From assembly GCA_016782785.1 (NCBI GenBank), contig JADHXV010000002.1:1-45020 (forward strand): DNA of 45,020 bases, given 5' to 3'. The DNA is from Planctomycetota bacterium (GTDB lineage Bacteria > Planctomycetota > Phycisphaerae > FEN-1346). The stretch's first letter is position 1, and each line of letters opens with the position of its first letter. A model generated the notes under the pieces. It worked only from the letters and a program-made list of their open reading frames with translations. It searched no databases and had not been told where the DNA came from. Below, piece after piece: positions 31,231 through 36,375 of this stretch. A program made the position numbers and the translations under genes.

Positions 31231-31599
31231 TTATCCGTCGCGTCCCACGGCCATGGCCATTTCCATCTGTTGGTACGTCCGGGCCAGCAGCCGCGCGTAC
31301 GTCTTGTAGAGCAGCGAGTTCTTGACCAGGTCGCCGATCTCGGCTTCCAGTTGCACGTCGTTGCCGATCTCGTTGACCTCGCCGGTCATCGGCCGGGTCA
31401 CCTGGTCGAGCAGGTCGCCGTACTGGACGGGCTTGCCCTTCTCGAGGGCGTCGGCGAAGACCTCCTCGAACGGCACGGCGTGCCGGCGGTAGCCGGGGGT
31501 GGCCATGTTGGCGATGTTGCCGGCGATGACCGACTGGCGGAGGTTGGCGGCCCGGAGGCCGGCCTCCAGGTAATCCGTTATGCGGGCGCTTTGATCCAT
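31231..31599 (-). CDS. flgB: flagellar proximal rod protein FlgB
   Basis: Trimmed to MDQSARITDYLEAGLRAANLRQSVIAGNIANMATPGYRR...LVKNSLLYKTYARLL. The rest of track ORF 31231..32820 is a shadow of the regulator gene. Confidence 0.92.
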   Translation of the reverse strand: MDQSARITDYLEAGLRAANLRQSVIAGNIANMATPGYRRHAVPFEEVFADALEKGKPVQYGDLLDQVTRPMTGEVNEIGNDVQLEAEIGDLVKNSLLYKTYARLLARTYQQMEMAMAVGRDG

Positions 31600-32969
31600 T
31601 GCTCTTGCTCCTCGCGGTCCAGGCCGTAGGCCTCGCGCCACCGCCGCAGTTTCTCGCGCAGCGTGCGGTCGCTGATGCCCAGCAGGCCGGCGGCCTTGGC
31701 CTGGTGGCTGTCGGTGATGCGGAGGGCCTCCAGGATGGTCCGGCGTTCCACGTCCTTCAGGAGGAGGCTGCGGGGCGGGGGCAGGGGGTTCGCCGGGGCC
31801 AGTTCCGCCAGGAGCCACGGGGCCTCGGTCAGCGACAGGACCTCGCCCTCGCCCAGAATCAGCGCCGTCCGGACCAGGTTCCGCAACTGGCGGACGTTGC
31901 CCGGCCAGTCGTACTGGTAAAAGAGGTCCATCATCTCGGGGTCCAGCCGCGTGATGCGGCGACGCGTCTCGCGGGCAAACTGGTTGATGAAGTGCCAGGC
32001 CAGCACCGGGATGTCCTCGCGCCGGTGCCGCAGCGGCGGAATGTGAATCCGCACGCCCGCCAGCCGGTAATACAGGTCGGACCGGAAGGCGCCCTCGCGG
32101 ACCAGGCGCGCCAGGTCGCGGTTGGTGGTGCTGACCACGCGGACGTTGACGCGGACCCGCTGCGACCCGCCGAGGCGCTCGAAGTCCTGCTGCTCCAGCA
32201 CCCGCAGCAGTTCCGCCTGGAGCCGCACGCCCGTCTCGGTGATCTCGTCCAGGAGCAGCGTGCCGCCGTCGGCCAGTTCGAATCGGCCCTTGCGCTGGGC
32301 CACCGCGCCCGTGAACGCGCCGCGCTCGTGGCCGAAGAGTTCGCTCTCCAGGAGCGTCTCGCTGACGGCTGCACAGTTGACGCGCAGGTACGGCCCCCGC
32401 GACCGCCGGCTGGCGTGGTGCACCAGGTGGGCGAAGAGTTCCTTGCCGGTGCCGCTCTCGCCGCACAGGAGCACCGCCACCGACGTCGGGGCCACCTTGC
32501 GCGCCAGGGTCACCGCCTCCCGCAGGCGCGGGCTTCGGCCGACGATGCGGTACGGCGCGGGCACGTCCGTGTCGGCGGCGTCGGCGGAGGGCACCGGATG
32601 GGCCGGCACCAGGCGGTCGAGCAGCGCCTCCAGGGCCTCGCGCTGGACGGGCTTGGAGAGGACGTCGTCGCAGCCTTCGCGGACGGCCCGGACGGTCGTC
32701 TCGCGGTCGCAGGCGTCGGCCAGCAGGACGACGGGCAGTTCGGGCTCGCGGTTCTTGATGCGGCGGACGATTTCCAGCCCGCCGCCCGGGGCCGACAGGT
32801 CGCACAGCACCAGGTCCCACCGGCCGGCCTCGAACCGTTCTTCGGCCTGCTTCAGGTCGGCCGCGACCACGCCGCGGATGCCGCGGGCCGCCAACGTCTC
32901 CAGCAGCGCCCGCGTCGTGTCGCCCTCCGGCTCGACGATCAGCACGTTGTGTCCGACCGATTCCATCAT
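31578..32969 (-). CDS. sigma-54-dependent response regulator (NtrC family; FlbD/FleR/FlrC-like)
   Basis: Trimmed to MMESVGHNVLIVEPEG. The REC domain has an acceptor Asp (DLVLCDLSAPGG). The AAA+ domain has Walker A (GESGTGKE) and GAFTGA. The C-terminus is a Fis-type HTH (AAGLLGISDRTLREKLRRW). ATGA overlap with the upstream gene. Its stop overlaps flgB by 22 nt. Confidence 0.92.
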   Translation of the reverse strand: MMESVGHNVLIVEPEGDTTRALLETLAARGIRGVVAADLKQAEERFEAGRWDLVLCDLSAPGGGLEIVRRIKNREPELPVVLLADACDRETTVRAVREGCDDVLSKPVQREALEALLDRLVPAHPVPSADAADTDVPAPYRIVGRSPRLREAVTLARKVAPTSVAVLLCGESGTGKELFAHLVHHASRRSRGPYLRVNCAAVSETLLESELFGHERGAFTGAVAQRKGRFELADGGTLLLDEITETGVRLQAELLRVLEQQDFERLGGSQRVRVNVRVVSTTNRDLARLVREGAFRSDLYYRLAGVRIHIPPLRHRREDIPVLAWHFINQFARETRRRITRLDPEMMDLFYQYDWPGNVRQLRNLVRTALILGEGEVLSLTEAPWLLAELAPANPLPPPRSLLLKDVERRTILEALRITDSHQAKAAGLLGISDRTLREKLRRWREAYGLDREEQEQWIKAPA

Positions 32970-33781
32970 GGACTCACACCTTCCGTCGGCTTCGTTACCG
33001 CGTTCGACGCCGCGGCATTCGTCGCGGCCGCGCCGGGCAGGGGCGCCAGCAGCGTCTGCGGCTGCGTCTGGGTTTGCCACTGGAGGAGGTTCTTGCGGAC
33101 CTTGGCGGCCTCGACCCAGGGCGACTCGGGGTGCTCGGTCACCAGCCGGTCGTAGAGCGCGAGGGCCGCCGCCGCGTCGCTCTGCCGCTTGCAGTTCGCC
33201 GCCTGGTAGAGCACCCACGCCCGGGCCATGGCGCCGAGCGACCCGTCCGCCAGCAGCCGCTCGTACAGGGCGGCGGCCTCGGCCGGGTGCCCGCCCAGGA
33301 ACAGGGCGTCGGCCAGGCCCATCGGTTCGCCCAGGCGGTCGAGCGACAGGTCCTTCACGCGTGTCAGTTCCTCCTCCGTGAGGACCGGCGACGCCTGCGT
33401 CGCGGCCCGAGGCGGCGCCTCGCCGGCACCGTCGGCGGCGGGCGTCGTGGCTGCCTCGGTGGGTTCGGCCGGCCTCGGTTTCGCGATCGGCCGCTCCAGC
33501 GCCTCGCGCAGACGCCGCATCGCCTCTTCCAGGTCGACCGACGGGGCCGAGGGCGGCGGGACGTCGATCTGCGAGTCCATCAGCCGCGCGCGGTTCTCCC
33601 GCACCTCGCGCAGCAGACCGTCACCGGTGGCGTTGCCCGCGCTGTCGCCCGAAACCGTGCCCGCGCTGCCGGCCGCGGGTGCAGTCGCGCCGTCGGCCGG
33701 CCCGCCCGCCGGCGGACCCGCCGCGGCGCTCCCAAGCGCCAAACTCACCACCGCCAGCGCGAGCGCCAGGGTGCGTGTCAC
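32966..33781 (-). CDS. secreted TPR/Sel1-like repeat protein
   Basis: GTG start overlapping the upstream stop (GTGA). Signal peptide is MTRTLALALAVVSLALGSAAA. A Pro/Ala-rich linker is followed by helical repeats (ADALFLGGHPAEAAALYERLLAD...AWVLYQAANCKRQSDAAAALALYDRLVTEHP). Confidence 0.7.
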   Translation of the reverse strand: MTRTLALALAVVSLALGSAAAGPPAGGPADGATAPAAGSAGTVSGDSAGNATGDGLLREVRENRARLMDSQIDVPPPSAPSVDLEEAMRRLREALERPIAKPRPAEPTEAATTPAADGAGEAPPRAATQASPVLTEEELTRVKDLSLDRLGEPMGLADALFLGGHPAEAAALYERLLADGSLGAMARAWVLYQAANCKRQSDAAAALALYDRLVTEHPESPWVEAAKVRKNLLQWQTQTQPQTLLAPLPGAAATNAAASNAVTKPTEGVSP

Positions 33782-36282: not shown

Positions 36283-36359
36283 GCGTGCGCTCAGTCCTGG
36301 TTCGCGTGTGCCCGGGCCGCTCCGCGCCAGAGCGCGGGCGCAGCCGTGCGGAGGTTGGG

Positions 36360-36375
36360 TGCAACCGGCGTGCCA
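36360..36375 (-). promoter_or_regulatory. sigma-54 promoter (-24/-12) of the TPR-regulator-flgB operon
   Basis: The minus strand reads TGGCAC-GCCGG-TTGCA, an exact match to the TGGCAC-N5-TTGCW consensus. It lies about 80 nt upstream of the ATG at 36282. Confidence 0.75.

Follow-up and report, generated by a model that had tools for sequence, protein, structure and literature searches.

Periplasmic proteins built from tetratricopeptide repeats (TPR) and partnering an E-ring protein are a widespread theme of flagellar motors, with PflA, MotK, MotC, CC_2058 and FlcA/B as examples, and a survey of 2025-26 proposes TPR proteins as ancient, widespread motor spokes (PMC13023049). PflB has a cytoplasmic N-terminal region, a transmembrane (TM) helix and a TPR region of 820 amino acids (aa) that a beta element near residue 388 divides in two; its repeats are extended before this element and compact after it, and the mid-protein strand pairs in antiparallel beta fashion with the last C-terminal residues (PMC11870540). 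A resemblance to PilF, a TPR protein of type IV pili, has been noted for both PflA and PflB, and TPR scaffolds are, according to the same authors, not conserved in sequence (PMC11870540). Among flagellar regulators, FlbD is a kinase-independent activator with a divergent receiver devoid of phosphorylation residues, and is controlled by the binding of FliX (PMC3096577). Literature searches retrieved no dissected flagellar motor or regulon from Planctomycetota. The DNA analysed here, a stretch of 45,020 nucleotides (nt) from a Phycisphaerae-type planctomycete (contig JADHXV010000002.1; the whole stretch is referred to as the window), has a G+C content of 69% and carries a large flagellar cluster. 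This report concerns the 5' end of its early flagellar operon, at which a large TPR protein, a small secreted protein and a sigma-54 activator (reg1) are encoded, in this order, ahead of flgB:

36360-36375, minus strand: sigma-54 promoter of the operon, an exact consensus match, TGGCACGCCGGTTGCA, with -24 element TGGCAC and -12 element TTGCA
33778-36282, minus strand: first cistron, TPR gene of 834 codons, an open reading frame (ORF) starting at the ATG at 36282
32966-33781, minus strand: second cistron, gene for the 271-aa secreted protein, identified as an ORF with a GTGA overlap
31578-32969, minus strand: third cistron, reg1, a 463-aa sigma-54 activator recognised with Pfam and NCBIfam
31231-31599, minus strand: flgB, above the cut-off of TIGR01396 (FlgB), followed by flgC, fliE, fliF, fliG, fliH and fliI

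The genomic context, conservation and domain layout described below make it somewhat probable that the two TPR proteins form a PflB-like accessory periplasmic scaffold of the motor. This interpretation is favoured because the genes have a flagellar context everywhere they were compared, because conservation of the large protein is confined to its TM helix and periplasmic part, and because its layout matches that of PflB. The original prediction, made from the letters of the window, had placed an exact sigma-54 consensus ahead of the operon and had described its first genes as chained by overlaps, and both points were borne out: the GTGA at 33781-33778 joins the 834-aa ORF to the 271-aa ORF, the ATGA at 32969-32966 joins the latter to reg1, and the stop of reg1 at 31578 lies beyond the flgB ATG at 31599, giving a 22-nt overlap.

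The large protein belongs to a well-delimited family. It has 31 close clusters, and a profile of its non-C-terminal part (residues 158-462), searched against 1.84 billion representatives clustered at 50% identity, matched 355 clusters at E<=1e-3, 247 of them below 1e-30. The matched members are 650-1220 aa long and uniform in layout, with no diffuse tail of TPR proteins; the few source names available are from Phycisphaerae and Sedimentisphaerales. In the loci compared, from 15 species-representative genomes and eight further contigs, the order TPR gene, small-protein gene, reg1 is invariant and always stands at the head of a flagellar operon, in an identical position down to about 27% sequence identity. 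The TPR genes are thus tied to flagellar loci in every relative compared. In three distant loci, the cassette is followed by fliL-fliM-fliN-flhA-fliA instead of flgB. What is conserved as a unit is therefore the trio and not its connection with the rod genes. The overlaps between its genes are absent from distant loci, which have gaps of 18-270 nt. On the sequences compared, the cassette is a conserved feature of Planctomycetota, in Phycisphaerae and relatives, with about 250-350 clusters at 50% identity as its carriers. It could be argued that the cassette has no flagellar function and that generic TPR genes have come to lie beside flgB by chance, given that Pfam and NCBIfam recognise only generic TPR in these proteins and that their source entries give the product as 'tetratricopeptide repeat protein' and nothing else; however, their position is identical even at the greatest distances, always behind the operon sigma-54 promoter, the family is found only with this layout, and no minus-strand terminator was found inside the TPR/flgB operon. 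A chance neighbourhood is therefore strongly disfavoured and effectively excluded.

The domain structure of the 834-aa protein was derived from an AlphaFold2 (AF2) model made with the family alignment, with a predicted local distance difference test score (pLDDT) of 82. Only TPR families were matched in this protein with Pfam. The model and the alignment give the following layout:

35983-36282, minus strand: residues 1-100, acidic, Pro/Ala-rich cytoplasmic head, predicted to be disordered (pLDDT <50)
residues 1-87: disordered in the model, followed by a short helix at residues 88-95
35917-35982, minus strand: residues 101-122, TM helix (AF2), with Asn108 and with basic residues before the helix
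residues 126-157: disordered, Pro-rich linker in the model
35404-35796, minus strand: residues 163-293, N-terminal periplasmic TPR-like arm, helical in the model
35005-35265, minus strand: residues 340-426, beta-alpha domain, from the AF2 secondary structure (pLDDT 80-94)
33820-34983, minus strand: residues 434-821, C-terminal TPR superhelix, with TPR_16, TPR_21 and TPR_19 among the Pfam families matched, and from AF2

The description of a single-TM protein with an acidic, Pro/Ala-rich head and a long TPR array thus agrees with the ORF, its composition and the model. The head contains 19 Asp or Glu, 4 Lys or Arg, 12 Pro and 29 Ala residues. The basic residues before the TM helix indicate that the N-terminus is cytoplasmic and that the remaining 700 residues are periplasmic. 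In the N-terminal arm, TPR_12, TPR_6 and TPR_2 are matched in 11-12 of the 25 family members, and the C-terminal superhelix consists, in the model, of eleven or so TPR pairs, after which the alignment shows a conserved tail, G-x-V-P...E-G-x-x-P. Conservation does not extend beyond the TM helix and the periplasmic region. The head varies in length between 0 and 484 aa and has no common motif across 166 family members, one of which has just seven residues before the TM helix. Of 161 representatives, 77% have an Asn within the helix and 78% a basic residue (Arg or Lys) upstream. In a single-pass helix, conservation of a polar residue such as this Asn suggests a specific helix-helix contact within the membrane.

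The array is interrupted by the beta-alpha domain, in which the most conserved motif of the family, E-V-A-C-G-x-x-G-L-V-A-R, is located, with invariant columns. In the full-length model, the elements of residues 340-426 follow one another as a hairpin and then beta-alpha-beta-beta-alpha-beta-beta. The latter is the reference topology of the N0/STN fold. The domain is like secretin N0 and STN in this predicted order and in a helix start, 'PLEEvL', that resembles the STN motif, and unlike N0, STN or TcpQ in that it reaches no Pfam threshold: STN, Secretin_N and TcpQ give no match at the Pfam gathering score, and hhalign comparisons of the domain profile with Escherichia coli FecA-STN, GspD-N0, GspD N0-N1 and FecR-C are not significant (all probabilities <3%). 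TcpQ is the only recurring non-TPR Pfam family, with sub-threshold matches in 5 of 18 and in 4 of 25 members (best E 0.0058), and STN was matched a single time, also below threshold, in 1 of 18 members (E 0.17). Residues 332-432 modelled alone had a pLDDT of 52 and no confident fold. Because there is no match at threshold, because hhalign is not significant and because the isolated domain gave no confident fold, the N0/STN label is used here for a resemblance only. A beta-alpha segment interrupting the TPR array, as originally described, is therefore present in the model, and its likeness to a secretin N0/STN module extends to topology and to the sub-threshold TcpQ and STN matches.

The large protein is like PflB in its size class (about 820 aa), cytoplasmic N-terminus, single TM helix, TPR array split by a beta-containing element and flagellar gene context; the N-terminal TM helix is followed, as in PflB, by a mostly TPR periplasmic body (TM at residues 101-122, TPR at 163-293 and 434-821). 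It is unlike PflB in that the mid-protein element is a full beta-alpha-beta-beta-alpha-beta-beta domain rather than a single strand paired with the C-terminus, that no PflA-sized partner is encoded, and that its gene is the first of a flgB operon under sigma-54 control. With PflA, MotK, MotC, CC_2058 and Borrelia FlcA/FlcB it shares the condition of a periplasmic TPR protein encoded near flagellar genes. PflA and MotK have a signal peptide and an AMIN-like beta-sandwich ahead of their TPR, whereas the large protein is anchored by a TM helix, carries its N0-like domain mid-protein and begins its periplasmic part with helices. As an accessory scaffold, the large and small proteins would assemble around the MS-ring/stator region and would position or stabilise stator units, as do PflB and PflA in Campylobacter, FlcA in Borrelia and MotK and MotC in alphaproteobacteria. 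The large protein, anchored by its TM helix, would display its N-terminal TPR arm, the N0-like domain and the long superhelix in the periplasm, and the pair would be made first, with the MS-ring, rod and export genes.

Several observations weigh against this interpretation. A Foldseek search of the PDB with the full-length model retrieved the C. jejuni scaffold chains 9hmf_K and 9hmf_L with E-values of 1e-8 and 2e-7 (ranks 9 and 45), but their TM-scores are only 0.17-0.21 and generic eukaryotic TPR solenoids ranked higher; because of these low scores and higher-ranking solenoids, the structural match does not discriminate. When profiles of the full family, of its N-terminal periplasmic half and of the small protein were searched against the PDB sequences, no similarity to solved flagellar scaffold proteins emerged, and the matches were confined to designed or generic TPR and pentatricopeptide repeat proteins. 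The beta1-beta2 'hook and loop' of PflB is not predicted, the C-terminal tail being a low-confidence coil in the AF2 model. The 271-aa protein is far shorter than PflA and has no counterpart of its AMIN-like beta-sandwich. Finally, the persistence of the TPR pair beside reg1, even where the downstream genes differ, is compatible with a regulatory role as well. Profile and structure searches did not demonstrate homology to PflA, PflB or MotX.

The literature provides a further point of comparison. Supplementary Table 5 of PMC11870540 includes Planctomycetes, among them Algisphaera, Pirellula and Adhaeretor, for which it gives TPR proteins of about 780-845 aa near flagellar genes as potential PflA, together with FlgY homologs of 226-249 aa. 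In each genome, the accession numbers of the two proteins differ by 12-20. In keeping with this, the window has an 11-gene spacing between the TPR gene and the following ORF:

24328-24993, minus strand: 222-aa ORF directly after fliJ (25073-25579), with no Pfam match

By position and size, this ORF is a candidate FlgY/FlbB/MotE (E-ring) homolog. Judging from size, gene spacing and neighbourhood, the window protein may be an ortholog of the survey's planctomycete TPR proteins ('TPR-1'); a word-indexed protein search with a broad 25-sequence family profile returned no matches. The proposal of an undescribed periplasmic motor scaffold therefore retains its second half as the favoured interpretation, and 'undescribed' was too strong, because the potential PflA had already been listed (PMC11870540). 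If the scaffold interpretation is correct, the ancient and widespread TPR spokes or rims around the MS-ring would extend to the Planctomycetes, Verrucomicrobia and Chlamydiae (PVC) superphylum, and the locus would be a further case of a secretin- or pilus-type domain recruited to a flagellar scaffold.

The second gene of the cassette encodes, in every locus, the small secreted protein. The 271-aa protein begins with a signal peptide that lacks a lipobox Cys and contains, in an alignment of 10 orthologs, a conserved helix (LLREVRxNRxRL), a linker rich in Pro and roughly two TPRs, which are of the YbgF/BamD type; it has no beta domain. Pfam matches at E<=0.1 are limited to TPR_6 (weak), TPR_16 and TPR_14, and no Sel1 repeat was matched at this level. 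The signal peptide and the TPR had been correctly recognised, whereas the qualification 'Sel1-like' found no support, the TPR_6 match being itself weak; a Sel1/MotX-like identity was rejected, as Pfam gives TPR families without Sel1, and the protein differs from MotX of the Vibrio T-ring in having no Sel1-type repeats.

These features bear on a different possibility, in which the TPR pair would serve assembly or the envelope instead of being a permanent part of the motor. It would then act as a pilotin-like helper or chaperone of the P/L-ring or of rod passage, or as a tether of inner membrane, peptidoglycan and outer membrane at the motor, in an envelope that is unusual in planctomycetes. The weak NCBIfam similarity to YbgF/CpoB, BamD, PorW and PilW would fit such a role, as would the resemblance of the small protein's TPR to BamD/YfiO, the recurrent sub-threshold matches of the central domain to TcpQ, a pilus-biogenesis family, and the likeness of PflA and PflB to PilF (PMC11870540). 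However, all of the NCBIfam matches are far below their cut-offs and lie in generic TPR regions, FlgA and FlgH are encoded nearby in their usual form, and a membrane anchor in which a polar residue is conserved is more in keeping with a stable complex than with a transient chaperone. An envelope factor of this kind is considered rather unlikely.

The third gene, reg1, encodes a REC-AAA+-HTH protein with matches to Sigma54_activat (PF00158, at 3.8e-66), AAA_lid_14 and HTH_8, a Fis-type helix-turn-helix; the GAFTGA, Walker A and Walker B motifs are intact in its translation. Its receiver aligns well with solved receivers, and the residues of its pocket are E-P/D/A/K instead of DD/D/T/K. The acceptor Asp noted in the original prediction is thus present, in a pocket that is otherwise degenerate. 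Among 21 orthologs, Asp57 is replaced (by Glu, Ala, Ser or Val) in eight, Thr87 is never Thr (Ser in three), a DD pair is present in one and the Lys is missing from nine; none of the 21 has all five residues of the receiver quintet together. Phosphorylation therefore cannot be the conserved mode of control of reg1. The statement that no histidine kinase is encoded anywhere in the 45 kb proved correct: Pfam found no HisKA or HATPase domain in any plausible ORF of the window, and no H-box motif occurs in its six frames. The degenerate receiver accounts for the missing kinase, and describing the regulator as an orphan for want of a partner kinase explains it less well than a degenerate, FlbD-like receiver in 21 orthologs. 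A kinase overlooked nearby was rejected as an explanation, since a cognate histidine kinase was found neither in the window nor in the displayed flanks of related loci, and since the degenerate pocket makes one unnecessary.

The closest described parallel is the FlbD-FliX system of Caulobacter. Like FlbD, reg1 is a REC-AAA+-HTH protein with a divergent receiver and no cognate kinase, encoded within an early flagellar operon. Unlike FlbD, it scores 328.9 bits against the NF050807 equivalog cut-off of 750, behind AtoC and NtrC, and its gene precedes flgB, whereas flbD lies at the end of the fliF operon in Caulobacter. By analogy, reg1 would work like FlbD without being an FlbD equivalog: it would need no kinase, and its activity would probably depend either on its own abundance, with positive feedback from the promoter of the operon, or, as for FlbD, on a protein partner. 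No gene resembling fliX was recognised in the window, on which no FliX model was run. The only small conserved unknown protein linked to reg1 is the 271-aa secreted protein, which is on the wrong side of the membrane for a FliX-type partner.

These properties of reg1 raise the question of whether the TPR pair might instead be a trans-envelope assembly checkpoint, sensing the state of the rod, P-ring or stator and controlling reg1 as an analogue of FliX-FlbD or of the FlgS input in C. jejuni. The degenerate receiver has to be given some input other than a kinase, and FlbD provides a precedent for control by a protein partner (PMC3096577). The three genes stay together irrespective of whether flgB or fliL comes next, they are translationally coupled in the window, and the conserved Asn of the TM helix could pass a signal to a partner in the membrane. 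Set against this, the head, which is the only part able to touch reg1, is unconserved (0-484 aa), the overlaps of the genes are lost in distant loci (gaps of 18-270 nt), roughly 20 TPR hairpins are typical of scaffolds rather than sensors, and promoter-proximal genes of an operon stay with their promoter even without functional coupling. A checkpoint is unlikely overall. Direct signalling from head to regulator is made improbable by the variation in head length, and binding of the receiver by the cytoplasmic head, as had been envisaged, was rejected as a conserved mechanism, the head being unconserved across 166 members. The earlier proposal of a checkpoint input through the head is thus weakened by the variable head and the lost overlaps, while an indirect checkpoint role retains the support of the unbroken linkage to reg1. 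One such arrangement, specific to planctomycetes, in which the Asn of the TM helix and a membrane partner would report motor assembly to the pseudo-receiver activator, possibly in addition to a scaffold function, is likewise judged unlikely. If a checkpoint of this type does operate, it would be a third independently evolved coupling of assembly to sigma-54, beside FliX-FlbD and FlgS-FlgR. The scaffold interpretation remains the favoured one.

The control of the cassette can be followed at its promoter. Allowing for one mismatch at most, the window contains four sigma-54 matches, versus 3.0 expected; a lone exact match in 45 kb is thus unremarkable, and related loci were therefore compared. 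Twenty loci of about 20 kb each, the window included, were scanned with a relaxed consensus, TGG[CT]A[CT]-N5-T[TC]GC[ATC]; in all 20, a match lies just upstream of the TPR gene and is the sole one on its strand. The promoter match ahead of the TPR gene exceeds chance. A second sigma-54 promoter and a second sigma-54 activator (reg2) are also present, together with candidate upstream elements:

36471-36508, minus strand: candidate enhancer (upstream activating sequence), GCGTCTGAAAACC-N12-GAAATCCTTACGC, about 95-133 nt upstream of the -24 element
36626-38094, minus strand: reg2, second sigma-54 activator, frameshifted, from its ORFs and Pfam
38569-38584, plus strand: second sigma-54 promoter, an exact match, ahead of the divergent fliK-flgD-flgE operon

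The bipartite upstream element of the TPR operon, with the consensus GCGTCTGAAAACC-N12-CAAAATCCTGACGC, aligns in at least 13 loci, including the distant loci L026 and L028, and a motif scan found TGAAAA[CG]C at -119 to -133 in 10 loci. This candidate element may be bound by either activator. Eleven of the 20 scanned loci, counting the window, have a site equivalent to the promoter at 38569 on the plus strand. About 126 nt upstream of this promoter, at 38443-38455 of the plus strand, are tandem dyads, CGGAAGA-N3-CTTCCG; this element differs from that of the TPR operon, and each is conserved in position. The features of the sequence that the original prediction listed were all found at their coordinates; the second, frameshifted activator and the second sigma-54 promoter had been overlooked.

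The receiver-like domain of reg2 carries none of the five quintet residues, and reg2 resembles FleQ/FlrA in kind, as far as its sequence indicates. A 1-nt deletion divides the gene into parts encoding 347 and 154 aa, exactly where the AAA+ core meets the lid; the frameshift was mapped near 37121-37149 by comparison with intact orthologs of other species, and the downstream piece could restart at the GTG at 37090. An identical split is present in contigs L022 and L024, from assemblies 99.6-100% identical to the window, and a sequencing error is unlikely, because three assemblies differing by 0.3% share it. The frameshift is thus probably real, and reg2 may be a pseudogene or an activator in two pieces. 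A sigma-70-like promoter, TTGAGT-18-GATAAT, lies ahead of reg2 (38271-38300, minus strand), which fits a position of reg2 at the top of a cascade.

The arrangement is like that of FleQ/FlrA and FleR/FlrC in Pseudomonas and Vibrio in having two sigma-54 activators, of which the upstream one carries a receiver-like N-terminal domain that is non-functional, and, as in that cascade, two sigma-54 promoters with different upstream elements. It is unlike it in that there is no FleS/FlrB kinase, that the receiver of the second-tier activator is also degenerate, and that neither FleN/FlhG nor FlhF is encoded in the cluster of the window. Two activators, two promoters and two types of enhancer suggest a two-tier cascade, in which reg2 would act on the TPR/reg1/flgB operon, followed by fliK-flgDE. 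As an observation on gene content, flhF and flhG are absent from the interval between flhA and fliA (13422-13767), their usual site in polar flagellates.

Flagellar TPR scaffolds and kinase-independent flagellar sigma-54 activators were already known, and a survey had flagged planctomycete TPR proteins. The new elements are a defined TPR family in which an N0-like domain is embedded and the TM helix is polar, its fixed association in one cassette with a secreted partner and an activator bearing a pseudo-receiver, and the architecture of promoters and enhancers. The locus offers three conserved handles, namely a candidate scaffold of the PflB kind that contains an N0-like domain, a small partner that is secreted, and a kinase-free sigma-54 circuit of two activators with defined promoters and enhancers. 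Current annotation gives the TPR proteins no other name than 'tetratricopeptide repeat protein'.

The cassette is part of the following gene order:

minus strand, 5' end: reg2, intergenic region, 834-aa TPR gene, 271-aa gene, reg1, then flgB onward
minus strand, after reg1: flgB, flgC, fliE, fliF, fliG, fliH, fliI, fliJ, 222-aa ORF of unknown function
minus strand, after the 222-aa ORF: motA, motB, fliL, fliM, fliN, fliP, fliQ, fliR, flhB, flhA, fliA
minus strand, end of the cluster: flagellin gene, fliD, fliS
plus strand: fliK, flgD, flgE, unknown gene, flgF/G

Some of these genes have peculiarities of their own. In fliK (38610-40529, plus strand), a 228-bp (76-aa) tandem duplication at 39345-39808 is present in 2.0 copies of 98% identity, and the 99.7% identical contig L022 has a single copy of the repeat (563 aa vs 639 aa); this reflects either a polymorphism among strains in the length of the ruler or a collapse in the assembly. 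For fliK, the ORF start assigned mechanically, at 38400, lies upstream of the sigma-54 promoter, and the real start is the ATG at 38610. The FliL domain is at the C-terminal end of a 443-aa ORF (21515-22843, minus strand), whereas FliL has about 190 aa in distant relatives, and the long ORF reflects either an N-terminal extension or a misplaced start. Between the flagellin gene and fliA are two ORFs of unknown function (10821-11474 and 11461-12135, both minus strand), one with weak matches to GNA1162-like/CsgG lipoproteins and the other with a lipoprotein signal and coiled-coil-like matches; they may encode outer accessory lipoproteins of the motor. Positions 1-6740, beside fliS, fliD and the flagellin gene, have a lower G+C content (59-66% vs 69%) and encode F420-dehydrogenase-like, LPG_synthase_TM, polysaccharide pyruvyl transferase, methyltransferase and DUF354 proteins, which looks like an island for the modification of flagellin or surface glycans. 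Finally, a gene at 42632-43780 (plus strand), encoding a protein of 370-440 aa with no Pfam match, lies between flgE and flgF, a conserved arrangement that the window shares with all related loci (L005, L022, L026, L028 and L029).

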